The translations under genes and the position numbers were made by a program. A stretch of 64,000 nucleotides of DNA from Candidatus Woesebacteria bacterium. Its GTDB lineage: Bacteria; Patescibacteriota; Microgenomatia; UBA1400; PJMF01. The notes below the pieces were generated by a model. That model was not told the origin of the DNA and searched no databases. It worked only from the letters and a program-made list of their open reading frames with translations. Of the stretch, positions 4,115-55,389 are shown one piece after another (positions within the stretch are counted from its first letter, which is position 1; each line of letters opens with the position of its first letter). The stretch is taken from NCBI GenBank assembly GCA_050123235.1, contig JASFHL010000003.1, positions 50,077 to 114,076 on the forward strand, in the 5' to 3' direction.

Positions 4115-4894
4115 TTACTTTTCAATCTCTTTTACCGCCTCTCTATAAGCACAATAGTCACAATCCTCACCAGCATCAGGAATAGAATCACTATTTAAAC
4201 ATTTATGAGCACTCTTTATAGCTTGTTCAACCCAGCCATCAATTCCCTCATAAGCGATTAAAGTTATATTAAACTCAAGTTTGGCATCAAAAGCTTCTTT
4301 GTCTGTAATTCCATTACAATAGACAAAATAGCCTGTATCAGAAACTTTGTACTCATTTTGCCTTAGTAGCCACTGATACACCTCCATTTGACGCTTATAG
4401 CCTTCTTGCCAGTCCTTATCTAGCTCTGTTATCTCTTCACCCTTAGAAGTTGACTTGTAGTCAACAACAAGATATTCATCTTTAGAGTTGATCCATAAGT
4501 CATCAATGGCACCAAAGATTAATAAGTTAGTAGGCTTATGTAAATATTGAACCCCTACAAAATTTTGCCTCCAGTCGTCTAGCTTCTCATGGGCCACTGG
4601 CTTAGCATCTACCCCATACTTTTCTATCAATGGATGTTGTGTCCCATTAGCCCTATGAACATCAAATTCAAGCTTCAGAAGCTTATCTACGGCACTATTT
4701 AGAGCAAAAGGGAAACCAGGTGGTCTAGATACGCCTAAGCGTCTATCTAAATAAAAACATCTAGGACATTCTAAAAACAGGTCAATCTTAGATCGGCTCA
4801 ACTTAAAGGGTTGCTTAGAGCCTGGTTGGTAACAATATTTTGCTGATCGTTTAGCATTATAGTATTGAGACATAGTTATTTTTCTCCAGTCCAA
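4115..4894 (-). CDS. PD-(D/E)XK nuclease, Cas4/RecB-nuclease-like with 2+2 Cys (possible Fe-S)
   Basis: IDDLW...EYLVVDYKS (D..ExK), QMEVYQWL (QxxxY), N-terminal CPRC and C-terminal CDYC; 19-nt overlap with hsdR. Confidence 0.6.
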
Positions 4895-7800
4895 TCTTTA
4901 GCTAACAACTCTGCTTGCTCTAAGACAATTTTCGTTGCCCCCTCTTGTTTGTCGGGCGGGTACTTATACTTCTTCAACAGTCTTTTTATATAGACCCTAA
5001 GTTTAGCCTGGACACTTTCTTTAATAGTCCAGTCAATCGTGGTGTTCTTGCGAAGCATGTTTACCAACTCTTTGGCCATGGCTTTGAGTGTTTTATCTCC
5101 CAACTCCCTAACGGCACTTTCGTTATTTGCCAGAGCATCATAAAAAGCCACTTCTTCCTCAGATAACCCAAGGTCTTCTCCTTTGTCTCGCTCTTTTTTA
5201 ATCTTTTTAGCTAGCTCTAAAAGCTCTGCAATAACTTGGGCCGCTTCCAAGGTTCTGTTTTGATATTTTCGGATTGTTTCAGCCAGCATGTCAGCAAAGG
5301 AACGTGACATAACTAGATTCTTTTTAGTCATGGTTCTCAGCTCATCGTTCAAAAGCTTTTTCAACAGTTCCAAAGCCACATTCTTATGCTTCATATTTTT
5401 AACTTCAGCTAAAAACTCTTCTGAAAAAATGGAAATGTCTGGGGCTTTAATTCCAGCGGCAGAATAAATGTCAACTACATGGTCTGAAGCTACCGCAGAA
5501 GATACTATCTGCTTAATTGCCACATCATAGTCATCATCAGTTGGACCGCCACCTATAGGCTCCATCTTTACAATCCCACTCCTCACTATCTGGAAAAAGG
5601 AAACCTCATCTCTAATCTTTATTGCCTCTTCATGCGGAACCGCTAAAGAAAATGCCTTAGAGAGCTCAGAAACGGCTTTTAAGTATCGTTTCTTGCCATC
5701 TTTAAGCCCTAATATATAGTTTGTCGCTCCAGAGATAGTTTGAGTTCTTTCTGCTGGTGTACCTGTCAAATATTTCTTGTAGTCAAAGCCGTGATACATG
5801 CTCTTAACCACTTCGTATTTCTCAAGCATTAAAGAAACTGCTTTATCTTGAGGAATCGCTGTTTCTTGCCTGTCACTTTCAGAGTAATAAGATAGGGCTT
5901 CTTTTAATTGAGGAGCAATGCCAATGTAGTCAACGATTAAGCCACCCTGTTTGTCTTTATAAACCCTGTTCACCCGAGCAATGGCCTGCATCAAACCATG
6001 GCCTTGCATTGGCTTATCTATATACATGGTGTGAAGACAGGGAACATCAAAACCCGTTAACCACATATCTCTCACAATCACCAGCTTCATTTCATCATCT
6101 GGGTTTTTCATTCTCAAGGCCAACTCATCTAAAACGTGTTTTGGCCTGATATGGGGCTGAAAATTCAAGGGGTCAGAAGCAGAACCAGTCATCACTACTT
6201 TAACCACGCCTTTTTTATCATCATCGCTGTGCCAATTGGGTCTGAGTTTGACTATCTCGTTATAAAGGTCAACGGCAATTCTTCTACTCATGGCCACTAT
6301 CATGCCCTTGCCCTCAATAGCGCTTTGTCTATTTTCAAAATGTTCTACCAAGTCACGAGCCACCAGACTAATTCTTTTCTCTGAACCCACCATTGCTTCA
6401 AGCCTGGCCCACTTACTCTTGAGCTTTTCTTTGCGCTCTACTTCTTCACCCTCAGTTAACTCTTCGAACTCAGGGTCAATCTTAGGCTGTTCTTCTTTTT
6501 TCAACTCGATTCTTGCCAGCCTAGCCTCATAGTAGATAGGTACTGTGGCTTTATCCTCAACTGCTCGGGTTACATCATATACATCAACGTATTCACCAAA
6601 AACAGCTCGTGTATTTCTGTCTGTTAACTCAACTGGAGTACCAGTAAAGCCAATAAACGAAGCATTGGGAAGAGCATCTCGCATGTGGCGAGCAAAGCCT
6701 TTGATAAATTCATACTGGCTTCTATGTGCCTCATCAGCAATAACAACAATGTTTTTCCTGTCAGAAAGTTGTGGATACGACTTATGTCCGTTCTGAGGTA
6801 AAAACTTCTGTATGGTCGTAAATACCACACCACCAGAGGCTACTCTTAATAGTTCTTGTAGTTCATCTCTATCATTGGCTTGCTTAGGAGCCTGTCTGAG
6901 TAAATCGGAACATCTAGAAAAGGTTCCGAAAAGCTGATTATCTAAGTCATTCCTGTCAGTCAAAACAACCAAGGTCGGATTATTCAGAGCCTGAATTACC
7001 TTACCAGCATAAAAAGTCATGGTTAAACTCTTACCAGAGCCCTGAGTGTGCCAAACTACACCCGCTCTTCTATTTCCCTTTTCCTTGGTAGCATTAAAGG
7101 TGCTTTCAATGGCTTTATTGGTAGCAAAGTATTGATGATAAGCGGCGGCCTTCTTGACTGTCTTTTCACCATCAGTTTCAAAAACAATAAAGTTGTTGAT
7201 TAAATCCAAGAATCTAGTCTTATCAAAAATACCTTTAAGCAAAACCTCCAGTTGAGGGAACGCATTAGGGGCCAATTCTTCACCGTCAACTGTTCGCCAG
7301 CGAGTAAACCATTCAATACTAGCGCTTATTGTCCCAACTTTTGCTTCCAAACCATCACTAATAATTGAGAGCTCGTTATAAGTAAACAAAGAGGGAATAC
7401 CTTGCTTGTAGGTTTGAATCTGGTTAAAAGCACTCTTTACTGTAGCCTTCTCATCGCCTGGATTTTTCAACTCAATCACCACAACAGGCAAACCATTTAC
7501 AAAGACTACTACATCTGGGCGTCTGTTTACATTATTCTCAATAACCGTATACTGGTTAACTGCCAAAAAGTCATTTTTCTCAATATTTTTAAAGTCAACC
7601 AATTTCACCTTATCACCAGCCACCGAGCCATCCTCTCGCATATATTCAACATCTACACCATCCCTCATGTATGAGTGAAATATCTTGTTGTTAAGCACAA
7701 GACTAGGCGTAGCATTAGTAGCTTGCAAAACCTTTTTAACAGCTTCTTCTTTAGCATCTGCTGGAATGTTGGGATTAAATTGGTCGATAGCAGAACGAAG

Positions 7801-7956
7801 CCTACCTTCTAACACCACTTCAGAATAGTTCTTGCGCTCTGGTCGTTCACCATCTGGAGGCGGAGCAATTTCTGGACCACCAATAACAGTAAATCCTAGC
7901 TCCTCAAGCCATTCTAGTGTTGCTAATTCTAGGTCTGATTCTGTGTATTTAGTCAT
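4876..7956 (-). CDS. hsdR: type I restriction enzyme R subunit
   Basis: 1026 aa; helicase motif [12 protein letters not shown] and DEAH ([10 protein letters not shown]); N-terminal nuclease region. Confidence 0.9.
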
Positions 7957-10400: not shown

Positions 10401-11612
10401 TCAATTTACTCTCAACTTCCCACTCATTAGTCTTGGTAATAAAGAGCCACGTATTGATGATAATTTTTCGTTTTCCAAGGCATTTATTTTAATTTGCTGA
10501 AATATGGGTTCCATCGAATTGTGAAACTTTCGTATCAATGCTGTTTGAGGTGATTTTAATTTGTAGTTTCGAATAGCATCAATTTGAACTCGTTGTCTCC
10601 CAGAGCTTCCGACCATGCTTTTAATTGCATGTTGTCGAAATTGCTCATTCCTTACTAAGAAATAAACATATTCTCTATACTGATTGTCGTTAGGTCTGAA
10701 AACTATATATTCCGTGGAACCAAAAGCTAGCTCACCAGCTTCTAAGAAGCTTACCAGGGCACTTTTGCCATTCTCTAAGCAGGGGGTGATTCTGGCCATT
10801 AGTGAATCACCGTTCCTGAATTTTGAACCTCCTTTATAAGGTTTGCTAATCTGAGAGGAAACCCACATTCCTTGTTCTGGTAAATCTTTCATCTCAACAT
10901 ATTTGGTAGTTTCTCCTTTTTTTAAACTCTCTCTAGGATTCAATTCAATAAGACTTTCTAGTGCTATCGCGCCTTCCAAGGCTTCTGAATCCACAAACCA
11001 ATTCTTAAACAGAGCCTTACCCATTTCCTCCAGGGTCTGATTCGTCTTTCGATTTAATTCAATTTTTTCATCGAGAGAGCCCAAAACAGAAGCTATCTTT
11101 AATTGCTCATCATAAGACGGTAACAAAACCCTTACTTTTCTGAACTCCGACTGTCTTATGCCTTTTACAACTGAGCCAGTAGCTCTAGAAACAAGCTCTT
11201 GTTGTCCTATGTATGAAAGCAAGTAATATTTAAGAAAAGTATTGTCTAGTTCACCGTCTTTTCCCCGTAAAGTTAACAGCCTTTGGGCTAAACCTATATT
11301 TGCAGTATCAAGCTGAGCAACTTCACCTAAGGGAGCTTCTGTAGTTATTACAACGTCTCCTTTTTTTGGCAATCCTCTTGTCATCCAATTTTTCCAAGTT
11401 TCTTTGGTAATATACTCAGGATTGGAATAATCTATCCTTCCCGCCTTAACAACCTTTGCAGTCACAAGAGGTATCCCTGAATTTGTTTTTGGAGGTGTCT
11501 TGCCTCTGTAGTCAATAATTTTATCCAAGACATCAACGGATTTTACTATTCTCCAACTTTGGGGAATCTCACCAATTTCTGTTTGTTTGTAGTTAGTTTG
11601 TTGTTTAGTCAT
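10401..11612 (-). CDS. hsdS: type I restriction-modification specificity subunit
   Basis: 403 aa, two target-recognition domains separated by conserved central/terminal coiled repeats (LPSYDEQLKIASVLGSLDEKIELN ... LLPRLMSGKL). Confidence 0.85.
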   Translation of the reverse strand: MTKQQTNYKQTEIGEIPQSWRIVKSVDVLDKIIDYRGKTPPKTNSGIPLVTAKVVKAGRIDYSNPEYITKETWKNWMTRGLPKKGDVVITTEAPLGEVAQLDTANIGLAQRLLTLRGKDGELDNTFLKYYLLSYIGQQELVSRATGSVVKGIRQSEFRKVRVLLPSYDEQLKIASVLGSLDEKIELNRKTNQTLEEMGKALFKNWFVDSEALEGAIALESLIELNPRESLKKGETTKYVEMKDLPEQGMWVSSQISKPYKGGSKFRNGDSLMARITPCLENGKSALVSFLEAGELAFGSTEYIVFRPNDNQYREYVYFLVRNEQFRQHAIKSMVGSSGRQRVQIDAIRNYKLKSPQTALIRKFHNSMEPIFQQIKINALENEKLSSIRGSLLPRLMSGKLRVN

Positions 11613-12362: not shown

Positions 12363-13901
12363 TTATAAATCAAATCCTACTTTTGCTAAGTTCTCTTTAA
12401 TTTTCTTTTCTAACTCTTTAGACTCTTTGAATTGTTGACTTAACTCATTTGTGAGTCTTTTCATTTTCTCCTCAAACACCTCGTCATCTTCCATCTCAAA
12501 ATCTGTACCTACATAACGACCAGGAGTTAACACAAAACCATTCTTTTCTACTTCTTCAGTTTTGGCAGCCTTACAAAAACCCTTAACATCTTCATACTTG
12601 CCATTCTTATTTCTCCAGTTGTGATAAGTGTCAGCAATTCTTTGTAGCTCTTCTTCTGTCAACTCTCTATGCCTTCTATCTATCATCTTGCCTAATTGGC
12701 GAGCATCAATAAAAAGAATTTCATCGTGGCGGTCACGGAATTTGTGGTTATATCTATCTCTACTTACAAACCACAAAGAAGCGGGAATGCCTGTTGTGTA
12801 AAAGAGTTTATCTGGCAAGGCCACAATACAGTCAACCAAACCAGCCTTGATTAAACTTTTTCTAATCTTTCCCTCATTAGAAGTATTGGAAGATAAGGCC
12901 CCATTGGCCATGACAAACCCAGCTATACCTTCAGGGGACAAATGATGAATAAAATGCTGAATCCAAGCATAGTTGGCATTTCCTGTTGGAGGCGCACCAT
13001 ATTTCCAGCGCACATCGTCTCTTAGCCTCTCTCCACCCCAATCACTATCATTAAAAGGAGGATTAGCCAAAATAAAGTCTGCTTTTAGGTCCTTGTGTTG
13101 GTCATTATGGAAACTGTCTGCATCGGAAGTACCAAGGTTACCCTCAATTCCTCTAATAGCCAGATTCATCTTACAAAGGCGCCAGGTAGTAGGGTTGCTC
13201 TCTTGCCCATAAACTGAAATATCGCCAGTCTTTCCTCCATGCTCTTCTACAAACTTCTCACTCTGCACAAACATACCTCCAGAACCACAACAAGGATCAT
13301 AAACTCTGCCCTTGTAAGGCTCTATCATCTGAACCAGAAGTTTAACTACTGAGGCTGGAGTATAGAACTCACCACCACCCTTACCTTCTGCACTAGCGAA
13401 TCTCCCAATAAAATACTCATAAACTCTGCCCAATATGTCTTTAACCTTAGCTTCTTTATCTCCTAAACCTAGAGAGCTGAAAATATCGATAATCTCTCCT
13501 AAGCGCTGTTTGTTAAGGTCTGGTCTGGCAAATCTTTTTGGAAGTACGCCTTTGAGAGTAGGGTTGTCCTTCTCAATGGCTATCATGGCATCATCAACAA
13601 GCTTACCTATCTCTGGTTTCTTAGCATTTTGCTTTAAATAATCCCAACGAGCCTTTTCTGGTACCCAGAAAGCATTTCTAGCTTTGTAAGCATCTTTATC
13701 TTCCCATTCACCATCAAAAGCGTCTTTGTCAGCCTTAATTGCTTGGTAGATATCTTCAAAAGAGTCTGAAATGTATTTGAGAAATATCAAACCCAAAACT
13801 ACATGCTTATACTCGGCTGGGTCCATATTGTTACGCATTTTATCTGCGGCGGCCCACAACTTTTTTTCAAAGCCAAGATTGGCTGTGGTTCTTTTTGTCA
13901 T
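12363..13901 (-). CDS. hsdM: type I R-M DNA methyltransferase subunit (N6-adenine)
   Basis: NPPF motif (ILANPPFN), AdoMet motif, conserved HsdM N-terminus [16 protein letters not shown]; ORF-track start 13991 is a 30-aa over-extension that runs into the upstream HTH gene, so start set at 13901. Confidence 0.85.
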
Positions 13902-13929
13902 AATTTTCTTAATTCTCTTTTTATTATTT

Positions 13930-14109
13930 TCAACTATTTTCTTTAAGATATTTTTTAATATCTTCTTGGCGATAACGTCTATCACCAACACCCTTACGAC
14001 TTCCGATTCTGACTGCCTTTAATTTACCTTGATTATCCCAACGTCTTAGCGTTTCTGTGTTTACTTTTAATAATTCAGCTGCTTCTTTTATTGTTAGTAA
14101 TTTCTTCAT
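13930..14109 (-). CDS. excisionase/MerR-like HTH DNA-binding protein (59 aa, below ORF-track cutoff)
   Basis: [36 protein letters not shown]...; paralogous to 15793..16017; first gene of the R-M operon. Confidence 0.5.
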
Positions 14110-16329: not shown

Positions 16330-16494
16330 ATGAAAAAAATAATAGGTTATTCTCGCATATCAAGTATAAAACAGTTATCTGACAATCAACTAGCTAAAAG
16401 TCAAAAAGAACTGGTTGCTGAATATGTGAATAAAAATAGATGCAAATTAATAGTGACGAATAACGATAGATTTTGCAGAAAGGGAATGAAATGA
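16330..16494 (+). pseudogene. serine-recombinase N-terminal fragment (54 aa) directly upstream of full-length recombinase
   Basis: MKKIIGYSRISSIKQ.. mirrors catalytic N-terminus (xxGYxRVSTxxQ); stop overlaps recombinase ATG (ATGA). Confidence 0.4.
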
Positions 16495-17996
16495 AAAAAG
16501 CAGTTGTCTATGCCCGAGTTTCAGACCCAGGACAAGTTGGAGGTTTGTCACTCGATGTTCAAAAGGAAAAGTGTGCAGAATGGGCAAAGAAAAATAAGTA
16601 TCAAGTAGTCGGGGTATATGAGGATGGTGGCAAAACAGGAACTAAAACAGTAGGTCGTGAAGGTTTAGAAGATATGATTATTCAATGTCAAGAAGAAAGC
16701 ATAAATGTGGCTTTGGTGATAGATACAGACAGAATTGCTAGAAACGAATTTGATCATTATAAAATCGTACACATTCTTAGGGAAAGTAACACTCAACTAG
16801 TAGCAATAAACCAACCAATGATAGATGATTCTGCAGAAGGTAAGCTCATGGAAGGCATGTTAGCCAGTATTAATGCCTTTTATAGTCGTCTAACAGGTCG
16901 CAAGGTTAAAAAAAGTCTAGAGAAGAAGCTCAAGGATGGTGATTGGCCTGGTTGGGCTCCTCTTGGTTATAAGAATGTTAATCTAGGCTCAGAAGACAAA
17001 CCCCATCGTGTTATTCAAGTTGATGAGGATAAGAGTTCCCTCATTAGTGAGTTATTTAAACTTTACTCTACGGGTAGCTATTCGGTTGACGAGCTAGTAG
17101 ATCATATAAACAAGAGGGGTCTAAGAAGCAAAACAGGCAAAAAAATGTATCGCAGTATTGTTTATGAGATGCTTAAAAACCCTTTCTATATCAGCTGGAT
17201 GAAATATAACGGTCAAACTTATAAAGGAAAACATAAAGCCTTAACCACACCAGAAATATTTGAAACCTGCCAGAAAATCATGGATCGGCACAACCATAAT
17301 GCCTGCAGAAGAAGAAAGTACAAGTGGCTTTTAAATGGTTTTGCTTATTGCCAAGAGTGTAATGCAAGACTTTATGGAGATAGGGTTAATGCGAAAAATA
17401 AGGCCTATTATCACGGCAACTCTAGAAGTGGTTGTAGTCACTACATTCCTTTAGATGAGCTTGAAGACGCTGTAGCAGACGAATTTAAGAAGATCGAGTT
17501 ATCAAAAGAGTTTATCCAAGCAGTTTTAGATAAAGCTAGAGAGCTTATCAAACAGTCTAGAGACTCCAGAACATCTGAGATAAACGGCGTGAGAAACGCT
17601 ATCAAAAAATTAGAAGATAAACGCAATATTCTTGAAGATAATCTCTTGGACCAAACCATTGATAAAGAGTCATTCAAGCGTAAACATCAAGACCTTAATT
17701 TTCAAATTCAAAACTTAGAGAATGATATAGCTACTATTGAAAACCAGAGAGGCTTTGATGTTGATGTGATAGAGGAGGTCTTAAAGCTCACCAACAACAT
17801 CTATGAGGTCTATTGTGATGCTGGCTTTGAAGCCAAGCGCCATTACTTAGCTATTTTCTTTGAGAGATTTGATATTAAAGACAAAAAGGTGGCAAAAGTT
17901 ACCTACACACCACTCTTTAAAAAGCTACTTGACTCGAGGAAAGTTAGAGTAAGTAGTAACTGGCTCCCCAGGTGGGACTCGAACCCACAACCTTGA
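16491..17996 (+). CDS. large serine recombinase (resolvase/invertase N-domain + recombinase domain + zinc ribbon + coiled coil)
   Basis: MKKAVVYARVSDPGQ catalytic motif, CQECNARLYGD zinc ribbon; likely start ATG 16491 (track start is TTG at 16473); 3' end overlaps tRNA-Asn. Confidence 0.85.
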   Translation: MKKAVVYARVSDPGQVGGLSLDVQKEKCAEWAKKNKYQVVGVYEDGGKTGTKTVGREGLEDMIIQCQEESINVALVIDTDRIARNEFDHYKIVHILRESNTQLVAINQPMIDDSAEGKLMEGMLASINAFYSRLTGRKVKKSLEKKLKDGDWPGWAPLGYKNVNLGSEDKPHRVIQVDEDKSSLISELFKLYSTGSYSVDELVDHINKRGLRSKTGKKMYRSIVYEMLKNPFYISWMKYNGQTYKGKHKALTTPEIFETCQKIMDRHNHNACRRRKYKWLLNGFAYCQECNARLYGDRVNAKNKAYYHGNSRSGCSHYIPLDELEDAVADEFKKIELSKEFIQAVLDKARELIKQSRDSRTSEINGVRNAIKKLEDKRNILEDNLLDQTIDKESFKRKHQDLNFQIQNLENDIATIENQRGFDVDVIEEVLKLTNNIYEVYCDAGFEAKRHYLAIFFERFDIKDKKVAKVTYTPLFKKLLDSRKVRVSSNWLPRWDSNPQP

Positions 17997-18035
17997 AGTT
18001 AACAGCTTCCTGCTCTGCCATTGAGCTACCGGGGA
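17961..18035 (-). tRNA. tRNA-Asn (anticodon GTT), CCA encoded
   Basis: hand-folded: acceptor TCCCCGG/CTGGGGA, D-arm GCTC-AATGGCA-GAGC, anticodon loop CTGTTAA, T-arm GTGGG-TTCGAGT-CCCAC, discriminator G; one G.A at top of anticodon stem. Confidence 0.65.
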
Positions 18036-24750: not shown

Positions 24751-27700
24751 CTAATCCAAAAACTTTAATTCTCTTATTTCTACCATCACCTCCCGGATTA
24801 AATTCTTGAGATCTTCCACATCATCTTGAGGCAAGCTAAATTTTCTTTGTACTAACTTGCCACTCTGTTTACTAGGTTCTACAAAATCAAAAACTCCTTC
24901 TTCCACTTGATAATTAAATGATTTATCTAACTGAGCTAAGAGTTTATAAAACAAAAGCTGGCGTTTGTAGCTTCCACGAATACTTTTTGGCAAAGTTTGC
25001 TCTCTCTCACTCAAGCCAGCTGAGAGAGTACGACCCTCAATAAAGCCCACAGTTTTAGCAGCTCCAGTTTTATAATCTATTACCCTGACTGTTTTTTTAT
25101 TTCTATCTAGAAGATCCACTCGATCAACTCTTCCAGTTAAGGCAATATCATCTAAAACTGTTTTGTGAAAACCACTACCAAAAAACTGCTCCATCATCAG
25201 AATCTTAGGTTGATCAGCTTGATAAAATTGATAATATTGAGTTAAAATTTCTTCACCGTATTTCAATCTTTTTTTAAATTCATTTTCATCTAAAAGCTCT
25301 TTTTCCAGAGCAAGTTTGAAATGAAGTAAAACTTCTGGTAATGGCAATTTTTGTCTTTTTTGCAAACAAGGTTTATACATTTGTTCTAAAGCAAAATGCA
25401 CAGCTGTCCCAAAAGCCATTGCTACTGGTTTAGCCCGAGGAACTTTTAACAAAACATTTTCCAGAAACTCCTGTTTATCTCTCAGATAAGTATTTAAATT
25501 AGTCACCGAAAGCTTAAAATTCTTTAATAACTGAGCAAAAAATTGTTTTTCAGTTGATTTAATTTTTCTTACTTTGGGAGCACTGATGATTTTCTCTAAA
25601 TACTGCTCAGCGTTTTGATTAATTTGTTTTGCCTCATCAACTTCTACTTTCTCTAGTTCATGTAAAAATAGACTTGCGGCCACATCTCTACTGTAATTTT
25701 CAGTCAAAAATGTGGCTGAATAACTAATGCTCACTTGTTTTTTCGCCCTGGTCAAAGCTACATAAAATAATCTCCTCTCATCTTCATTTCTTTCTTTTTT
25801 ACTTAGATCAGTATTTTTAAGGATTCCATCTGGCAGAGGAATCAAATCGCGCTTACGAGCATTGCCCCATTTACCATCAATTAGATGCATCAAAAAAACA
25901 TAGTCCCACTCTTGCCCTTTGGCCTTATGAACTGTGGATAAATGAACAGCATCTTGCCTTAAATTAAGATCTTCAGCTGGAATCTGTAGTTTATGCTCTC
26001 TCATAGTGTCAATGGCAGTTAAAAAACTGGCTAAATTAAAAGCATGATTAGCATTAGCTTGTGATTTGATCTCACGATATAGAGAATTTAGATTAGTTAA
26101 AATCTCTAAACGCTGCTCATGTTTTAAAACCCAATCCAGAAAATTAGATTCTTTTAGCAGGTACTCAAACCATTGAGGAAAAGTCATTTGAGGCTCTTGG
26201 CTTGTCCAAAGCTCTAGTTTAGCAAGAAAGTCAACTAACTTTTGAAAGTCCTCTTCTGGAAATTGATATTCTTTAGCTGCCTCGGCAATTGGCTCAAAAC
26301 CAAGTTTCAATAAATCTACAATACTGTTTTTCTTAAACTGATTTGCCAAACGAGTCAATTTCATGACTGATAAATGATCTAAATTAAAAAAAGGATATTG
26401 CATTAATTCAAAAAATCTTTCATCTTCTGTAGCAGTCCTTAAATCCAAAAGCACCTGCAAAAGAGTTAAAAGTTGATTAATAAGCGGATCAGTAAGAATA
26501 TTGCCACCGCCATCAATTTCATAAGCAATCTCCCATTTACTTAAAATCTGACAAAGCAAATCAGCATCACTATTATTGCGATATAAAACAGCAATCTCTG
26601 CTAAATTAACAGCTTGCTTTTTCAATTTTTTAATTTCTTCGGCAATATAGACTATTTCTAAAGTTTGCACTGCGGCCTCATGGACTTTAATCTTTTTGCC
26701 AGTTCCATGTGGACTTTTGAGAGCCAAATTAAAATCCTTAAAAGCAGTCTCGTCCAAAGACAAACTATTTTCAGCAATCAATTTACTAGCAGCATCATAT
26801 AAAGTCTGACTACAACGATAGCCTTTATCTAGAGTAATAATCTCAGCTTGAGGATAATGCTTAGTAAAAGCTAAAACATTCTCCACTGAAGCCCCCTGAA
26901 AACGATAAATAGACTGATTAGGATCACCAACCACAAAAATATTTGCGTCTTCACCCCAATAGGAAGTTAATAAATCCAGGACACGATTCTGAGCTGAGTT
27001 GCTATCTTGATACTCATCTACCAAAAAATAAAGAATGTTTTCCTGATATTCTCTAAGTAAAAGTTCATTTTGTTCAAAAGCTGAGAGCACCAAGGCAATC
27101 ATATCCTCATAATCAAACTTTAAACTATCTCTTAAATTTTCTTGATATTTTTCATAAATCAGAATCAATTCCTGATTCTTAGCCAATATTTTTTCTTTTC
27201 TTTTTAGCTCAGTTTTAGTGATTTTCTTGTTTTGAAGCAATTTTTTTTGTTTTTTGGGAAGCTTAGTCTCCTCTTCAAGCTGATCACGCAAAGACTCTAG
27301 GGCTTCGGCTTCTGACTTAATAATTTTTTTAAAATCTTTAACTGAAACTCCCTCCCTTTTAAGATTCGCAATGCTTTTAACAATATCTTTTAAATAAAAA
27401 TAAGGCTTATTCAAGGGTTTCAAAGCATGTAAGTCCAATTCATCAATAATTTTTTGCAAAAAATCATAGGATTCCAAAGATGTCAGAGGTTTACTAGCAC
27501 GCTCCAAGGGAAAATATTCAGGATGACTGTCAATTACTTCCTTACAAAAAGCATGAAAAGTATTAATCTGGACATAATAGGCAGCCTTGCCAATCATTTG
27601 TGCTAGGCGTTCTCGCATGTTTTTGGCAGCAGACTTAGTAAAAGTCAAAGCTAGAATAGAACGCGGATCAGTGTCAGTTTGTTTGAGAATATTGGCAATC

Positions 27701-27837
27701 CTGGCTGATAAAACCTGAGTTTTACCAGTACCAGGGCCAGCTAAAACCATCACTGGCCCATCAATTTGATCAACAGCCGCTCGTTGTTGTTTGTTGAGTT
27801 GTTGGTAGACTTTTTTGAAGTAATTTTTAGCTTTCAT
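24751..27837 (-). CDS. UvrD/PcrA-family helicase fused to C-terminal PD-(D/E)XK nuclease (AddA-like)
   Basis: Walker A GPGTGKTQ, UvrD motifs, C-terminal ..VIDYKTG.. RecB-type nuclease. Confidence 0.75.
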   Translation of the reverse strand: MKAKNYFKKVYQQLNKQQRAAVDQIDGPVMVLAGPGTGKTQVLSARIANILKQTDTDPRSILALTFTKSAAKNMRERLAQMIGKAAYYVQINTFHAFCKEVIDSHPEYFPLERASKPLTSLESYDFLQKIIDELDLHALKPLNKPYFYLKDIVKSIANLKREGVSVKDFKKIIKSEAEALESLRDQLEEETKLPKKQKKLLQNKKITKTELKRKEKILAKNQELILIYEKYQENLRDSLKFDYEDMIALVLSAFEQNELLLREYQENILYFLVDEYQDSNSAQNRVLDLLTSYWGEDANIFVVGDPNQSIYRFQGASVENVLAFTKHYPQAEIITLDKGYRCSQTLYDAASKLIAENSLSLDETAFKDFNLALKSPHGTGKKIKVHEAAVQTLEIVYIAEEIKKLKKQAVNLAEIAVLYRNNSDADLLCQILSKWEIAYEIDGGGNILTDPLINQLLTLLQVLLDLRTATEDERFFELMQYPFFNLDHLSVMKLTRLANQFKKNSIVDLLKLGFEPIAEAAKEYQFPEEDFQKLVDFLAKLELWTSQEPQMTFPQWFEYLLKESNFLDWVLKHEQRLEILTNLNSLYREIKSQANANHAFNLASFLTAIDTMREHKLQIPAEDLNLRQDAVHLSTVHKAKGQEWDYVFLMHLIDGKWGNARKRDLIPLPDGILKNTDLSKKERNEDERRLFYVALTRAKKQVSISYSATFLTENYSRDVAASLFLHELEKVEVDEAKQINQNAEQYLEKIISAPKVRKIKSTEKQFFAQLLKNFKLSVTNLNTYLRDKQEFLENVLLKVPRAKPVAMAFGTAVHFALEQMYKPCLQKRQKLPLPEVLLHFKLALEKELLDENEFKKRLKYGEEILTQYYQFYQADQPKILMMEQFFGSGFHKTVLDDIALTGRVDRVDLLDRNKKTVRVIDYKTGAAKTVGFIEGRTLSAGLSEREQTLPKSIRGSYKRQLLFYKLLAQLDKSFNYQVEEGVFDFVEPSKQSGKLVQRKFSLPQDDVEDLKNLIREVMVEIRELKFLD

Positions 27838-27877
27838 ATTTGAATTTTGTGCTAGCTGATTGGATTGTTTATGTAGT

Positions 27878-27983
27878 TGATAGGATAATATTCTAAAGAC
27901 TCACCCACTCTCGCCAGAATGTTCTTCTGCTTTGCAGAAACTCTGTAACGCACCGGGTTCGCTTGTAGAATATTATCCTATCA
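27878..27983. repeat. family-2 palindrome-embedded intergenic element, copy A
   Basis: ~70-nt core (aaagactcacccactctcgccagaatgttcttctgctttgcagaaactctgtaacgca) flanked by 17-bp perfect IR gataggataatattcta/tagaatattatcctatc; inverted copy at 55260..55359. Confidence 0.55.
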
Positions 27984-28026
27984 GCTATAAATACCAATAT
28001 TTTAACTAAGTACAAAGCTCATAACT

Positions 28027-29133
28027 CTAAACAAATTTTTTAAACAGCATTTCAACTTCATCAGCACTATTAGTCAGCACTAACTCTTGCCGAATCCGGC
28101 TAGCATCCTTGATACCTTTAATATACCAAGCTAAATGCTTTCTCATTGGCAAAAAGCTATATTTTTCATTCATCGCAAAGGTCTTTTCATAAAGCCTGGC
28201 ATGCTCGAGAGCGATTTTGAAAATTGACCTTTGCTGCCTAGGAGCTGCAGGCTGACTTTCTGCATCAGCGCCTTGTTTACTATAACCAGCTGGCTGAGCT
28301 TCATCAAGAAAGACAAAAGGATTACCTAAACTAGCCCGAGCAATTAAAACTCCAGCTACGCCATATTCTTTTGCTTTTACTAAAGCCTCTTGCCTGGATT
28401 TAAGATCACCATTTCCTAAAATAAACGTCCCAGTACCTTGAGCTAGCTTAACTGCTCTGCCAATCTCTTGCCAGTTTGCTTGCCCCTTGTAAGCTTGCCT
28501 TAAAGTACGCCCATGCAGAGCAATGGCTGCTGGCTGCGTTTCTAATAGGGTCGATAGCCAATCCTTAGTAATCACCCGATCAAAACCAATTCTTGTTTTA
28601 ATACTGACTGGAATTTTGCGTTTTGCTTGATATTTTTTGGGCAAAGCTTGATGCTTCTTTTCCACCTCTTGCCAAATCTCTTGAGAAATATCAGCACAAT
28701 CACGACTATGTTTACCTTGGTAGCAATCTTCAATACCTGCTTGAGTGGCTTTGATAATTTTTTGGGCTAGTTTAGGATTTTTAATCAAGGCTGCCCCAGC
28801 ACCATGACTAGCTACAGTTTTAGCTGGGCAGCCCATATTCAAATCGATACCATCAAAACCTAACTCTGCCACCAGCACTGCTATTTGGCGAAAGGCTGCT
28901 GGAGTTTTACCATAAAGCTGGGCTATGATGGGGCGTTGACTTTCATCATATAAAAGCTGTCTTAATAAAACCTTGGCAGCATGACAAAGACCCTCTACAC
29001 TAGTAAATTCTGTGTAGATTAAGTCTGGATTGCTATATTTTTTGACTAAATGACGAAATGGCTGGTCAGTAACTCCATCCATGGGAGCAAGAGCAACGAT
29101 GGGTTTGGGGAGTGTTTGCCAAAAGTTTTGCAC
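28027..29133 (-). CDS. dus: tRNA-dihydrouridine synthase
   Basis: ALAPMDGVTDQPFR N-terminal motif, TIM-barrel flavoenzyme pattern. Confidence 0.8.
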   Translation of the reverse strand: MQNFWQTLPKPIVALAPMDGVTDQPFRHLVKKYSNPDLIYTEFTSVEGLCHAAKVLLRQLLYDESQRPIIAQLYGKTPAAFRQIAVLVAELGFDGIDLNMGCPAKTVASHGAGAALIKNPKLAQKIIKATQAGIEDCYQGKHSRDCADISQEIWQEVEKKHQALPKKYQAKRKIPVSIKTRIGFDRVITKDWLSTLLETQPAAIALHGRTLRQAYKGQANWQEIGRAVKLAQGTGTFILGNGDLKSRQEALVKAKEYGVAGVLIARASLGNPFVFLDEAQPAGYSKQGADAESQPAAPRQQRSIFKIALEHARLYEKTFAMNEKYSFLPMRKHLAWYIKGIKDASRIRQELVLTNSADEVEMLFKKFV

Positions 29134-29209: not shown

Positions 29210-29485
29210 TTAATATGTTTTGCCTACCTTTCTCAACTTTTCAGACAACCACATTCTAGCTAAACTGGAAACACTTAAATTATAGTGCTGAGCAATTTTT
29301 TTTAATTGCTTTTTTAATGAAGTTTGTAATCTAATAGTTAATACTTCTTTTTTTTGAAAAACCTGTTTAAAAAATTTCACAGAAACCTTTTTCATTTCAG
29401 GTAAATAATCAGTCAGATCATGCTGATCCCAGAAATTAGCTTCTTCTTGAACTGATTTAAATCTAGGAATTTTATTTTCTGACAT
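29210..29485 (-). CDS. brnA: BrnA-type antitoxin
   Basis: 91 aa, EANFWDQHDLTDY motif, overlaps upstream brnT. Confidence 0.6.
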   Translation of the reverse strand: MSENKIPRFKSVQEEANFWDQHDLTDYLPEMKKVSVKFFKQVFQKKEVLTIRLQTSLKKQLKKIAQHYNLSVSSLARMWLSEKLRKVGKTY

Positions 29486-44298: not shown

Positions 44299-44417
44299 AG
44301 ACTTTCCTTTCTTTTTAAAATTTAGCTAGCTAACTAATAATGAAAAATGTTTAGCTAAATTTTATTTTTTAATTAATAACAAACTTGAGGCAGCAATCTG
44401 GTGATTAATGACTAAAG

Positions 44418-44452
44418 TTTGTGCCCCTCGTCCTCCAGGTGAGGGGCACAAA
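44418..44452 (-). terminator. hairpin tttgtgcccctc/gaggggcacaaa (12-bp stem) downstream of lipoprotein gene
   Basis: seen in sequence. Confidence 0.4.
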
Positions 44453-44575
44453 GCACACGAAAGCGAAATTGGCAGCTGGTCAAGCGCGCTGGGTGGAGCC
44501 CGGGGTGTCGCTCGTGGTGCAGACGATGCGCGCACCACTTGGGACGATGCTAGTAGGGTGGGCATGAAGCCCTCC

Positions 44576-45715
44576 CTACTGAATCATACCTGAGTAGGTG
44601 GGCAGCTCGAGCAGAGCCTGCTGCGGGATGTCAAGCAGGGTGACGCTGACCCAACCAATTCTCTTGTCGGGCGCATCATACAGGAGTACGCGCGCGCCGT
44701 TATCCGAGAGCTGGACGGGGTATACACCGATAAGGCTCCCATTGAACAATCCAGTAGGTTGGCTGGATTCGGGAGTTCTATAGGTGACAGCGCCGCGCTT
44801 ACCACCTTCCACCCAATCCACCGCGTACAAAAAGCCCTGCCAGCGGAATGAGAACCCGCCGGCCGCGCCGCCCACGTTGTCTACGCGAGCGCAGGCAGCA
44901 TTGGGCCCTGTAACGAGCATAAAGCTCCCGTTCGCAAAAGAACCAGCAAACTCACCCAACGACAGCGGCCCCTCGCAGTCAAGGTCATATGAGACCTTAC
45001 TGCTCAAGAAAAGCCCCGAATAAAACGTCCCCTGCACGACTTCCGGGTAGGTATGTTTAGGATCCGGATATGTCTGATCCGGCCCCCAGAACATTACTGA
45101 CACTGAGTGGGCCGCCTTCGTGCTGGGGTCGCCCGGGGTGTCTGGCGCGAGATCTGGCTGAAAACAAAAGCCGTACTCATCGCACTCGACATTGAACCTG
45201 TCGTCACGCACGCCGCCCGACCAACCGGAAAAGGCAAAGGGCTCCAGCCCCGCCTCTCCCCGTCCCTCGTCCGAGTACGGAAAGGGGCGGTCGTTCCCCC
45301 AGTACGCTTCGCGGGAGGGCAGAGCGGCGGTGGCGTCGGCGTCTGCCTCGGGCGCAGGGTTGTCGGCGAGTTGGGGGGTGGCGGTCGGTGTGGGCGTGTC
45401 AGCGGGCCTGGCCGACTGCGCAGTCGCCGCCAGCTCCATGCCCGACAGCGCCCCCTCGGGCCCGCCACCGTCACCCAAAAACGCCTGTTGCGTGGCTAAC
45501 TCGGCCGACAACTCCTCCACCCGCCCAGCAGCCACCACGCGCGTGGCGACCATCTCGGCCGTGGCCGTGGCCTCAGCCCGGGCAACCTCGTCGGTTGCCC
45601 TGACCTGGGCCGTAGCCAGCTCGTCACCAGCCGGCAGCGAGTTCGAGTCTTTGTTACAGCCACTGGCCACCAGCAGCAGCAGCCCAAACAACACCAAAAA
45701 AAACTTCTTATCCAT
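44576..45715 (-). CDS. lipoprotein (signal peptide + lipobox LVASGC), Ala/Thr-rich linker, unknown C-terminal domain; high-GC codon usage
   Basis: MDKKFFLVLFGLLLLVASGC; strong SD; overlapping plus-strand ORFs 45107/45192 are GC-rich artefacts. Confidence 0.65.
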   Translation of the reverse strand: MDKKFFLVLFGLLLLVASGCNKDSNSLPAGDELATAQVRATDEVARAEATATAEMVATRVVAAGRVEELSAELATQQAFLGDGGGPEGALSGMELAATAQSARPADTPTPTATPQLADNPAPEADADATAALPSREAYWGNDRPFPYSDEGRGEAGLEPFAFSGWSGGVRDDRFNVECDEYGFCFQPDLAPDTPGDPSTKAAHSVSVMFWGPDQTYPDPKHTYPEVVQGTFYSGLFLSSKVSYDLDCEGPLSLGEFAGSFANGSFMLVTGPNAACARVDNVGGAAGGFSFRWQGFLYAVDWVEGGKRGAVTYRTPESSQPTGLFNGSLIGVYPVQLSDNGARVLLYDAPDKRIGWVSVTLLDIPQQALLELPTYSGMIQ

Positions 45716-46891
45716 GATGTACTACCTCCTTATGTCTGTGGCACATCCCCCTCATGGAACGCGGCCCCTTAGGCTTTCGGCTTGGGGTCCGCTTCAGGGA
45801 GTGCCTGGGTTTGGGCCGGCCAGCGGCGCGATCCTCGTCGCGCTCCGCATTGCCAGCCCTATTCAAAGAAATAAAGTGGGTCGCACGGCTCGACGACCCC
45901 CGTCCGTAACGCGTGCCCCGCAGACCGCGCTGCCGGGGGGACTTAGCCGTTCGGCTCAGAGGGTCGCACCGCGCGCAACCATGAGCAAGTCCAGTCTAAA
46001 GAAAACTCATTTTCTTCACACTGGACTTGCCCAGTTTCATTTATCTATTTTTTTTAATTAGGAGGTTGTTTTTTCCACCATTTCTAAAACCCCAATTTAC
46101 TAATTTAATTTCGCCAATTTATGAAATCCATAACTGCAACTAATTTCTAATCACAAAATTATAGATTTAATTTAATACTTGTGTGCTTTGTTAAAGAGCT
46201 GTTTTAACTATCAATAAAAATTATTTTTAGTAAAACTACCCTGCTAAAAAAAATTTCTCTCCCGCCAAAAAGCTCGTCATTGAGCCTCAGGCAAGTAAGC
46301 AGACATTTTCAAAATAAAAATGCCTAAGATTAATCTTCAGCGTAATTTTTATTTAAAAAAAATAAAAACATCACTAAAGACTAATTTTTAGCAGCTACCA
46401 GATCAAATTATAACACTTTTTTATTACTTCTGTCAATGTTATAGGACTTTTGAAAATTACACTTTATGTAATCTTTCTCATCTAAAATAATAAGTATGAA
46501 ATTAAATCAAGCTCAAAATAAATTAATGGCTAAGCTTCATATTGATCTCGCTAAAAATTTCGCTGTCACAGTATTAATTAATGAAACTAATAAAATAAAC
46601 AATACCCTAAATAAGACAATATTTATTATGACTTGTGGTATAATATTTTTATCTTTAATTCTATTATCATTAGATTATTTAAAGAAGGTAAAATGAATTT
46701 TAATTTAGAAGCAATTTATGAAGGGGTTTATTCTTTTCAATTGTTGATAGTTCTTACAGGAATTTTTGGAGCATTAGTTTTGATCTCTCACAGGATGGGT
46801 AGCAAAGACAAAAAAGATAAAAAATAATCTTAATCTTATCTAAAGATTATCTTTTTTTATGTTGAGGATTGAAACATCTAAATATTTAATA

Positions 46892-47053
46892 AACAACTTA
46901 CTACAAATAAATATTAGAGTGTTGAAGCGAGGTCTGGCCAGGATCGAACTAGCAATCAATTTACTGCCGAGCTTCACTGAGTGAGCCTTGTATCTTAAAA
47001 ACAAATAAAATGCTGTAGCGAACGACTCTAATATTTATTTGTAGTAAGTTGTT
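46892..47053. repeat. family-1 palindrome-embedded element, copy 2
   Basis: 104-nt core flanked by 29-bp perfect IR aacaacttactacaaataaatattagagt (46892-46920 / 47025-47053). Confidence 0.65.
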
Positions 47054-49148: not shown

Positions 49149-49307
49149 AACATTAATATATATAAATATGAGAGCGTTGAAGCGAGATCTGGCTAAGTTT
49201 ACATTAGCAAAAAACATACTACCGAGCTTCACTGAGTGAGCCTAGTATCTTAAAAAAAGAAGAAATGTTGCAGCGAACGACTCTTAGATTTATATATAGT
49301 AATGTTC
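49149..49307. repeat. family-1 palindrome-embedded element, copy 3
   Basis: core conserved with copies 1 and 2; 27-bp flanking IR gaacattaatatatataaatatgagag / revcomp with 2 mismatches + 1 wobble. Confidence 0.6.
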
Positions 49308-54017: not shown

Positions 54018-55202
54018 TTATTTTCTGAGCAATCGAATTTCTGCCTCAATAAAATCATCTAATTCTCCATCTAAAACAGCTTCAACATCTGAACTTTCTA
54101 CTTTAGTTCTGAGATCTTTGATTAATTTATATGGATGTAAAACATAATTGCGAATCTGAGTGCCCCAGCTAGCATGTTGATGCTGACCTTTAGCTTGCTG
54201 AAGCGCTGCAGCTTGGCTTTCTTCTTCTATTTTAGCTAATTTTGCCTTGAGCATTTTCAAAGCTTTTTCTTTATTTTGTACCTGAGATCTCTCTTCACGA
54301 CACTTCACCACAATCCCAGTGGGTTTATGGCTTAGTTCTACAGCAGTATTAAGCTTGTTCACAGACTGGCCACCAGCTCCACCTGCTCGAGTAAAGTGCC
54401 AAGATAGATCTGTTTCTTTGATCTCAATCTCTTGCTCAGCAGTTAAAACTGGTAACACTTCAACCAAAGCAAAAGAAGTTTGCCTTAAATTATCTGCATT
54501 AAAAGGACTCAACCTAACCAGTCGATGAGTGCCTTGCTCAGCCTTGAGTTTGCCATAAGCATAAGGGACAATTACTTCAAAGCTAACTTCTTTAATTCCA
54601 GCTTCATCACCTCTAGATTCTGTCAAAAACTTATATTTCCAATCTTTTTTTTCAAAAAATTTAAGATACATTCTTTGCAGCATCTCTGCCCAATCCATAG
54701 CCTCAGTACCACCTTGACCAGCGTGAATAGATAAAATTGCATGGCAATGATCGTATTTACCGTTTAAATATTGTTGAATTTCTAGTTCCCGAATTAATTT
54801 TTCAGCCTGGGCAATTGTTTTTTTAATTTCTTGTTTTAGTTCTTGCTTTTCAAGCTTGCTTTTCTTATCAAGCTGCTTACTAATCGTTGAGCTTTGTTTA
54901 ACTGACCGGTTAGAAGCTAGATCACTATCTAGTTTTTGACCAGATTCTGCTAGTAACTCTTTTGAAGCCTTAAGATCTTCAAGCAACTGAGTCAATTCCT
55001 CCATTTTTGCCAAGATTGACTGTAAAATAGAGATTTCTTGCATTACTTGCTGTGAGCTATCCTTTTCCCAGAAATTGGACACTAAAGTTTGCTTCTCTAA
55101 ATCAGCTAGTTCTGCTTTTTTAACCGGAAGATTAAGATCAAGCAATAAATCAGAAGCTTGAGAAATAAGCTCATCGAGCTTGGATGATTTAATTTGAGAC
55201 AT
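54018..55202 (-). CDS. prfB: peptide chain release factor 2 (single frame, no programmed frameshift)
   Basis: SPF motif (LSPFNADN), GGQ motif (AGGQSVNK). Confidence 0.85.
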
Positions 55203-55259
55203 AGAGGCTTTATTTAGATTAGGCTTTGTGCTAGTTTATTAAATTGTTTCTATATTCAC

Positions 55260-55359
55260 TAGAATAATATTTTAAAAGCGAAGCCATTGCGTTACAGAGT
55301 TTCTGCAAAGCAGAAGAACATTCTGGCGAGAGTGGGTGAGTCTTTAAAATATTATTCTA
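55260..55359. repeat. family-2 palindrome-embedded intergenic element, copy B (inverted relative to copy A)
   Basis: core ~90% identical to revcomp of 27896..27965; 18-bp flanking IR with compensatory change relative to copy A. Confidence 0.55.
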
Positions 55360-55389
55360 CTAAATATAAACACCCATATTTTAATTTAA

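Follow-up and report, generated by a model that had tools for sequence, protein, structure and literature searches.

Introduction

Correia elements consist of an inverted repeat (IR) placed around a directional conserved core; their RNA hairpins are substrates of RNase III, and their end variants combine independently of the direction of the core (PMC2649163). In REPINs, substitutions on one side of the hairpin are often compensated on the other (PMC3116915). In Bacteroides, families of related small invertible promoters are present within one genome (PMC10403206), and in plastid non-coding DNA the hairpin loops between short IR stems flip repeatedly without a dedicated recombinase (PMC6824564).

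Here, we describe a repeat, called family 2, from a metagenome-assembled genome of Candidatus Woesebacteria. The window, i.e., the whole stretch of DNA that was analysed, covers 64 kb of a 125,990-bp contig. In bacteria of the candidate phyla radiation (CPR), whose genomes are very small and gene-dense, few repeat elements are to be expected, and neither MITE-like nor invertible elements were found described for CPR bacteria in the searchable literature. Family 2 is previously undescribed, and it belongs to the familiar class of intergenic repeats.

Results and Discussion

A 160-nt unit occupies two gene spacers

The original prediction placed a conserved core inside a palindrome at two loci, each in the region upstream of a minus-strand gene. 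This was borne out at both loci, the genes being a helicase-nuclease (locus A) and peptide chain release factor 2, RF2 (locus B), and the quoted sequences are present in the window as given. The core and the IRs are real, but the proposed extent was too short, as the similarity runs beyond them into co-oriented flanks. The unit measures 160 nt at both loci (27846-28005 at locus A and 55225-55384 at locus B, on the same strand) and has the same order at both: L motif, IR, 70-nt centre, IR, R motif.

Locus A
24751-27837, minus strand: gene of a UvrD-type helicase with a PD-(D/E)XK nuclease domain (downstream gene)
27846-27870, plus strand: L motif (TTTGTGCTAGnTnATTnnATTGTTT), outer left arm, 10 nt before the shared 15-nt IR block 27881-27895
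27878-27895: left arm of a perfect 18-bp IR (TGATAGGATAATATTCTA)
27894-27952, plus strand: invariant 59-mer, the reverse complement of 55288-55346
27896-27965, plus strand: 70-nt centre, AAGAC...GCTTG on the plus strand
27966-27983: right arm of the perfect 18-bp IR
27986-28005, plus strand: R motif (TATAAAyACCmATATTTTAA), outer right arm, 5 nt after the shared 15-nt IR block 27966-27980
28006-28016: possible outermost end (CTAAGTACAAA), weakly complementary to 27846-27856
28027-29133, minus strand: gene of tRNA-dihydrouridine synthase, Dus (upstream gene)

Locus B
54018-55202, minus strand: gene of RF2 (downstream gene)
55225-55249, plus strand: L motif, 10 nt before the shared 15-nt IR block 55260-55274
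55260-55276: left arm of a perfect 17-bp IR (TAGAATAATATTTTAAA)
55275-55344, minus strand: 70-nt centre, inverted relative to locus A; the arms are not inverted
55343-55359: right arm of the perfect 17-bp IR
55365-55384, plus strand: R motif, 5 nt after the shared 15-nt IR block 55345-55359
55390-57291, minus strand: gene of a DUF4012 protein (upstream gene)

All four bordering genes lie on the minus strand, and the unit fills each of the gene spacers (189 nt at locus A and 187 nt at locus B). Depending on where its ends are set, it is about 160-175 nt long, has no ORF, and its two copies are 27 kb apart. The RF2 gene is a single unbroken ORF of 394 aa with full PCRF and RF-1 domains, and it seems that the programmed +1 frameshift is not required here.

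A repeat search of the window returned the inverted pair 27867-28008 and 55232-55373 (142 nt, 81% complementary) as well as local arm pairs of 40 nt at 78% at locus A and of 31 nt at 87% at locus B. When a 30-nt core probe was used with up to 3 mismatches, matches in the window were obtained at loci A and B only, and shuffled sequences gave none; likewise, the 25-nt L motif and the 20-nt R motif were found at the two loci only, on the same strand and at equal distances from the IR. The outermost ends of the unit are weakly complementary to each other: the left flank of locus A matches the reverse complement of its right flank at 24/34 positions with gaps (p = 0.14, which is weak), and at locus B the corresponding value is 28/35 with gaps (p = 0.0085). 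The arm of locus B continues weakly to about 55399, across the stop codon of the DUF4012 gene.

The centre of locus A contains a TTCTGC-TTT-GCAGAA hairpin. Conservation between the copies is very uneven, with no mismatch in the 59-mer (57 nt of the centre and 2 nt of the adjoining IR arm) versus about 22% differences outside the fully identical part of the centre; by a rough estimate, the chance of such unevenness is about 1e-6. The bounds of the 59-mer were set by the branch points of k-mers at k=31 and are visible in the alignments. An ORF of 9 codons in the core (MFFCFAETL), noticed by eye, was put down to chance, since it lacks a ribosome-binding site and has the sense orientation at one locus only.

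Only the centre of the unit is inverted

The two copies had been proposed to be inverted relative to each other. This is correct for the IR-bounded 70 nt and incorrect for the arms, which have one common orientation: beyond the perfect IR, the left flank of A agrees with that of B on the same strand at 27/34 positions and the right flank at 29/35 (p ≤ 0.0005 for both), and comparisons of these flanks in opposite orientation gave p values between 0.08 and 0.55. When the centre of locus A was reverse-complemented in silico, the unit matched locus B at 136 of the 160 positions without gaps. The diverged 13 nt of the centre are inverted together with the invariant part, which indicates that the whole IR-bounded segment was turned over and that this is not merely an inserted 59-mer. 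Thus, in the two readable copies from which the repeat is known, the loci differ mainly by inversion of the IR-bounded 70-nt centre.

We also considered an inversion of the 27 kb between the cores. It was rejected, because the IRs are perfect within each locus and different between the loci, and the gene order fits that of relatives on both sides.

An independent assembly shows the same orientations

Contigs of an independent assembly (Logan, SRR11698124) were compared with the window. Four of them run from unique flanking DNA through the IR into the centre in the window orientation, and each ends inside the repeat, hence both orientations of the centre, one per locus, are seen there as in the window. 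The positions of contig ends were predicted from a simulated k=31 graph of the window under the assumption of two copies only, with the following result:

L010: predicted end 27923, observed end 27923
L009: predicted end 55317, observed end 55317
L008: predicted end 27923, observed end 27914 (9 nt short)
L007: predicted end 55317, observed end 55313 (4 nt short)

In L008 and L007, the terminal k-mer begins precisely at a position where A and B differ (27884 and 55283, respectively). These early ends therefore imply at least one further variant in the sample; they hint at a mixture of A-like and B-like states, perhaps from a third copy or from variation between strains. No branch was present at the boundary of IR and centre in the Logan contigs, thus there is no sign of mixed orientation at a single locus.

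These contigs also bear on the question of an assembly artefact, in which the assembler would have set a repeated core in an arbitrary orientation. The core repeat does exceed common k-mer sizes, and assemblies do break there. However, all four independent contigs enter the centre from unique flanks in the window orientation, and the perfect, locus-specific IR arms and the gene order shared with relatives, described above, speak against it too. We find this explanation hardly credible.

In the same assembly, contig ends fall in family 2 (27914, 27923, 55313 and 55317) and also in another palindromic repeat of the window, family 1 (33536 and 49173, see below). Since contigs end inside both, the two families act as assembly-breaking repeats in SRR11698124.

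Changes in the inverted-repeat arms are compensated

It had been predicted that a single IR position changes on both arms in such a way that complementarity is kept. Complementarity is indeed preserved, but the count is two positions and not one: within the 15-nt arm common to A and B, two positions differ, and at each of them the opposite arm has changed to match (G:C to A:T at pair 4/97 and C:G to T:A at pair 13/88). Of the 15 pairs, 13 are invariant, 2 have changed on both sides and none is broken. According to a rough estimate, the chance that two substitutions per arm land on mirror positions is about 1 in 100 or less; a shuffle control for covariation, which is weak with two sequences, gave 127/500.

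Each 15-nt arm is also nearly palindromic by itself (6 of 7 pairs), yet the compensation occurs between the arms and not within one. This indicates that it is the arm-to-arm relation that is maintained, and not two separate dyad-symmetric sites; for the same reason, the idea that the arms are two copies of a palindromic operator was discarded. Some caution is needed at this point, as compensated arm changes resemble RNA covariation, and arm-to-arm copy correction in a DNA palindrome gives the same pattern.

The unit is absent from the matching junctions of relatives

Both junctions were compared with those of relatives that have the same gene order. No close relatives are available: the best protein database homologues of RF2 share 58-60% identity with it, and for the helicase the value is 58%.

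Dus to helicase, relative L014 (C39 peptidase, BrnT, CopG, Dus, helicase): spacer of 6 nt versus 189 nt here
DUF4012 to RF2, relative L013 (RNase Y ... DUF4012, RF2, FtsE, FtsX, M23): spacer of 27 nt versus 187 nt here
DUF4012 to RF2, relative L017 (Mur ligase, hydrolase, DUF4012, RF2, FtsE, FtsX): spacer of 3 nt versus 187 nt here

The whole unit is missing from the matching junctions in all three relatives. The BrnT toxin/CopG antitoxin pair, which lies upstream of Dus in the window (29210-29771), keeps its position in L014 (8333-8870), and the L014 helicase that adjoins the BrnT/CopG-Dus genes is only 58% identical to the one in the window (24751-27837).

Given the short spacers of the relatives, the unit is a lineage-specific insertion into operon spacers. 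As this lineage gained it at two operon junctions that are unrelated to each other, it is a dispersed and presumably mobile repeat, and an ancestral leader is ruled out. The flanks show no direct repeat at either of the candidate unit boundaries, hence no target-site duplication was detected. When the window and the relatives' loci were searched with nhmmer profiles of the unit, the left arm, the centre and the right arm, no additional copy was revealed, and neither were empty sites or isolated pieces of the unit.

The original prediction had raised the possibility that the copies mark a shared 5' UTR, i.e., that the element is a conserved structured leader or cis-regulatory RNA of a regulon. 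It is true that a minus-strand gene follows directly downstream of each copy and that both copies form strong folds (see below). The core, however, faces opposite ways relative to the two genes, the unit is missing at the relatives' matching junctions, no Rfam family corresponds to it, and the genes lie inside operons whose ancestral spacers are 3-27 nt long. We therefore did not retain this proposal, and such a leader appears very improbable.

The insertion could also have taken place in two layers. According to such a scheme, a palindromic repeat of about 72 nt (L...R) would have been invaded at its apex, in either orientation, by an element of about 100 bp (IR-centre-IR) which targets loops. 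Some insertion sequences, e.g., IS1397 and ISKpn1, insert specifically into the loops of palindromic repeats. The sharp difference in divergence between the centre and the arms fits nested insertion, and so does the identical insertion point at A and B (10 nt after L and 5 nt before R). On the other hand, the IRs, which would form the ends of the invading element, show about the same divergence as the outer arms (2/15 per arm), and the 59-mer shows none; furthermore, neither an empty L...R palindrome nor an IR-centre-IR element elsewhere was found in the window or in the relatives' loci. Because the relatives are devoid of L and R as well, the nested model requires two successive insertions at each of the two sites. 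We consider it unlikely.

The unit folds strongly and contains no consensus promoter or terminator

We assessed the folding of about 141 nt of the unit. In both copies, the folds of the two strands are much more stable than those of shuffled sequences, with z-scores from -5.7 to -8.0 and fold energies of -51 and -52 kcal/mol for locus A and of -38 and -42 kcal/mol for locus B. It is the arms that drive the folding. In the case of the centre alone, one strand gave an unremarkable z = -0.64, and the other was marginal with -22.8 kcal/mol and z = -1.96, 6 of 200 shuffles being as good.

Promoter or terminator activity had been suggested as a point to check, and sequence scans showed no consensus of either type inside the units: no sigma-70-like promoter with at least 9/12 matches is present in a scan for the sigma-70 consensus only, and there is no intrinsic terminator (a GC-rich stem followed by a T run). 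Hexamers resembling -35 and -10 boxes can be seen by eye in the L arm and the IR at both loci, and they are too weak to be considered in AT-rich DNA.

Database searches were similarly negative. A scan of the whole window with Rfam at the gathering threshold returned tRNA as the sole match, and at E ≤ 10 only chance-level matches of at most 14 bits appeared. Exact-pattern searches with core 20-23-mers gave one chance match, inside a coding region, among species-representative genomes, 5 chance matches in JGI metagenomes, none of which extends past the pattern, and no match in viral contigs. The unit had no blastn match in phages and plasmids.

These results bear on the possibility that the 59-mer is a small RNA gene or a protein-binding module, transcribed from weak inward promoters in the arms (TTGTTT, 15-16 nt, TAATAT/AATATT). 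Such a role would account for its perfect conservation next to a surrounding that differs at about 22% of positions, and it is consistent with the better-folding strand of the centre and with the hexamers kept at both loci. However, the other strand folds no better than shuffles, hexamers of this kind are common in AT-rich DNA and no promoter reaches 9/12 in either unit, no Rfam match was obtained even at E ≤ 10, and no homologue appeared in any of the collections scanned. As the two copies of the 59-mer are identical, they offer no covariation for a small RNA. This role is improbable in our opinion.

Another explanation to be weighed is a programmed invertible switch (inverton), in which a trans-acting site-specific recombinase would flip the 70-bp centre at several related loci, the orientation altering either downstream expression or which strand of the 59-mer is transcribed. 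Related families of invertible promoters are known in Bacteroides (PMC10403206). The same flanks with an inverted centre are the classic signature of such switches, the IRs are perfect and co-evolving, the internal dyad symmetry of each arm resembles that of recombination sites bound by dimers, and a 59-mer that is invariant in either orientation suits a function in DNA or in RNA from either strand. Several observations stand against this explanation. No promoter-like site was detected by the sigma-70 scan in either unit, and the Logan contigs cross the boundary of IR and centre without a branch. Downstream of the units lie operon-internal housekeeping genes, which are poor candidates for on/off control, RF2 being presumably essential. 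The centres of the arms are 85 bp apart, which is near the lower limit for recombinase synapsis. Moreover, no small invertase is present in the 64-kb window. The sole recombinase there is a large serine recombinase (16473-17996), which abuts a tRNA-Asn gene in a restriction-modification island and is more likely the integrase of that island. All in all, we regard an inverton as unlikely.

A more far-reaching version would see the units as small invertible switches that form a dispersed family in a CPR bacterium, where the 70-bp cassette is flipped by a trans-acting recombinase or by none, fixed arm sequences read either strand of the 59-mer, and the flip alters the RNA product or the processing of the RF2 and helicase-nuclease mRNAs. 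This we hold to be decidedly unlikely.

Other features of the window

The window contains another palindromic repeat, family 1, in three copies (33453-33602, 46898-47047 and 49153-49302) which are 81-88% alike and have their own terminal inverted repeats. Unlike family 2, family 1 flips as a whole element, flank included. Kinship between the two families was examined on account of a resemblance in AAGCGA/GCGAG in a MAFFT alignment and was rejected; the cores gave p ≥ 0.1, and the best arm comparison reached p = 0.013 among 48 tests. The first copy of family 1 is enclosed by a perfect 27-bp IR (33388-33414 and 33652-33678) with 237 nt between its arms, and the segment bounded by this IR could also undergo inversion.

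Two GC islands, at about 34000-36400 and 44400-46000, have 58-72% GC versus about 33% in the genome, and both are near copies of family 1. The first encodes a 716-aa Beta_helix/NosD protein (34335-36485) and the second a 379-aa ORF without a Pfam match. These islands could be foreign DNA or a chimeric join. At 32344-34334 there are about 2 kb without any ORF of at least 120 aa, which looks unusual in a genome this gene-dense. ARAGORN found a 70-nt tRNA-Leu(aag) at 32475-32544 on the minus strand, which was not reported by the Rfam gathering scan. A 61-nt direct repeat (31464-31524 and 32554-32614) brackets a methyltransferase gene.

The segment 1987-18035 is a probable integrated island. It carries a type I restriction-modification system (hsdR at 4876-7956, hsdS at 10401-11612 and hsdM at 12363-13991), an AAA_13 ATPase, a PD-(D/E)XK protein and an HTH_36 protein. 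The large serine recombinase gene overlaps the tRNA-Asn gene (17961-18035, minus strand) at its 3' end.

A palindromic repeat with a flipped centre as the probable explanation

On balance, we think that family 2 is probably a low-copy, lineage-specific and non-autonomous palindromic repeat of about 160-175 bp, similar to Correia elements, REPINs and MITEs, whose centre is flipped by recombination between its own IRs. The repeat would have been copied into very short operon-internal spacers of this genome, each copy forming a long imperfect hairpin in which the outer arms lead to the perfect IR and then to the asymmetric 70-bp centre. The centre may have been inverted in one copy after the copies arose, or it may still be undergoing inversion. 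We infer that the IR arms, being close together, are likely to have allowed the inversion by recombination or by template switching during replication, as in the hairpin loops of plastids. The same arm-to-arm exchange, or selection for the hairpin, might keep the arms perfectly complementary, and with such exchange, or with correction templated by the hairpin, both arm substitutions would look compensated without any selection on RNA.

Since the unit lies between co-directional genes, it is presumably transcribed within the operon. The operon mRNA would then carry a hairpin of -38 to -52 kcal/mol in either orientation, and the most likely effect, by analogy with Correia elements, would be that of a processing or stability site, e.g., a substrate of RNase III.

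Several observations count against this explanation. Only two copies are readable, no target-site duplication is visible, and the 64-kb window contains no transposase and no gene of RAYT, the transposase by which REPINs are moved. Further copies, empty sites and solo pieces are absent from the window and the relatives' loci, and the Logan contigs give no hint that flipping continues. In addition, a purely selfish element does not explain the invariant 59-mer. Its conservation suggests either recent copy correction or a role that depends on the sequence of the centre, such as that of a mobility site, a protein-binding site or a small RNA, and because of it the invertible switch, the nested insertion and the small-RNA cargo keep some probability as rivals to the flipped palindromic repeat.

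The case shows a palindromic element entering operon spacers only 3-27 nt long, together with a flip of the centre only between copies. If family 2 is only a selfish repeat, its value is modest and mainly descriptive; it does offer a specific starting point from which DNA inversion can be tested in a lineage that has not been cultured.

Comparison with known systems

Correia elements (CREE/NEMIS) of Neisseria share with family 2 an IR-enclosed directional core, a size of about 100-157 bp and an intergenic location near genes, and their transcribed copies form hairpins that RNase III binds or cleaves. In contrast to them, family 2 has no sequence similarity to Correia elements, no visible TA target duplication and no promoter consensus at its ends. 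Its copy number is tiny, with two copies read and possibly one variant deduced from contig ends, and its host is Candidatus Woesebacteria from the candidate phyla radiation.

As in REPINs, two inverted, imperfectly palindromic arms stand on either side of a spacer of about 70 bp (71 bp in GI REPINs) and form one hairpin. However, REPINs have tens to hundreds of copies per genome and a RAYT gene, whereas family 2 has two copies and no RAYT gene in the 64-kb window; in addition, it is the arms that are most conserved in REPINs, and in family 2 the reverse is true (2/15 positions differ in the arms, and 59 nt of the centre are identical). The same reversal separates family 2, where conservation of the centre exceeds that of the arms, from typical MITEs. 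With MITEs it has in common that it is small, non-coding and dispersed and shows differences in presence and absence, and it differs from them by showing no target-site duplication. As for the ends that define a MITE, the internal IRs of family 2 are perfect over 17-18 bp, the arms of about 40 nt match at 78-87%, and the outermost ends are weakly complementary.

Like Bacteroides, Mycoplasma penetrans possesses families of related small invertible promoters (the mpl promoters). In invertons such as fimS, the capsule promoters of Bacteroides and mpl, short IRs bound a segment that lies in either orientation between fixed flanks, as is the case here. Unlike in these systems, each locus of family 2 shows one orientation, the segment is much shorter (70 bp), no promoter was found in it by the sigma-70 scan, no dedicated recombinase is found nearby, and the neighbours are housekeeping genes inside operons. 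Finally, the plastid hairpin inversions concern an organelle and one locus compared across species, whereas family 2 presents two copies in one bacterial genome. In the plastid case, the loops measure tens of bases, and related sequences come to differ only in the orientation of the loop.
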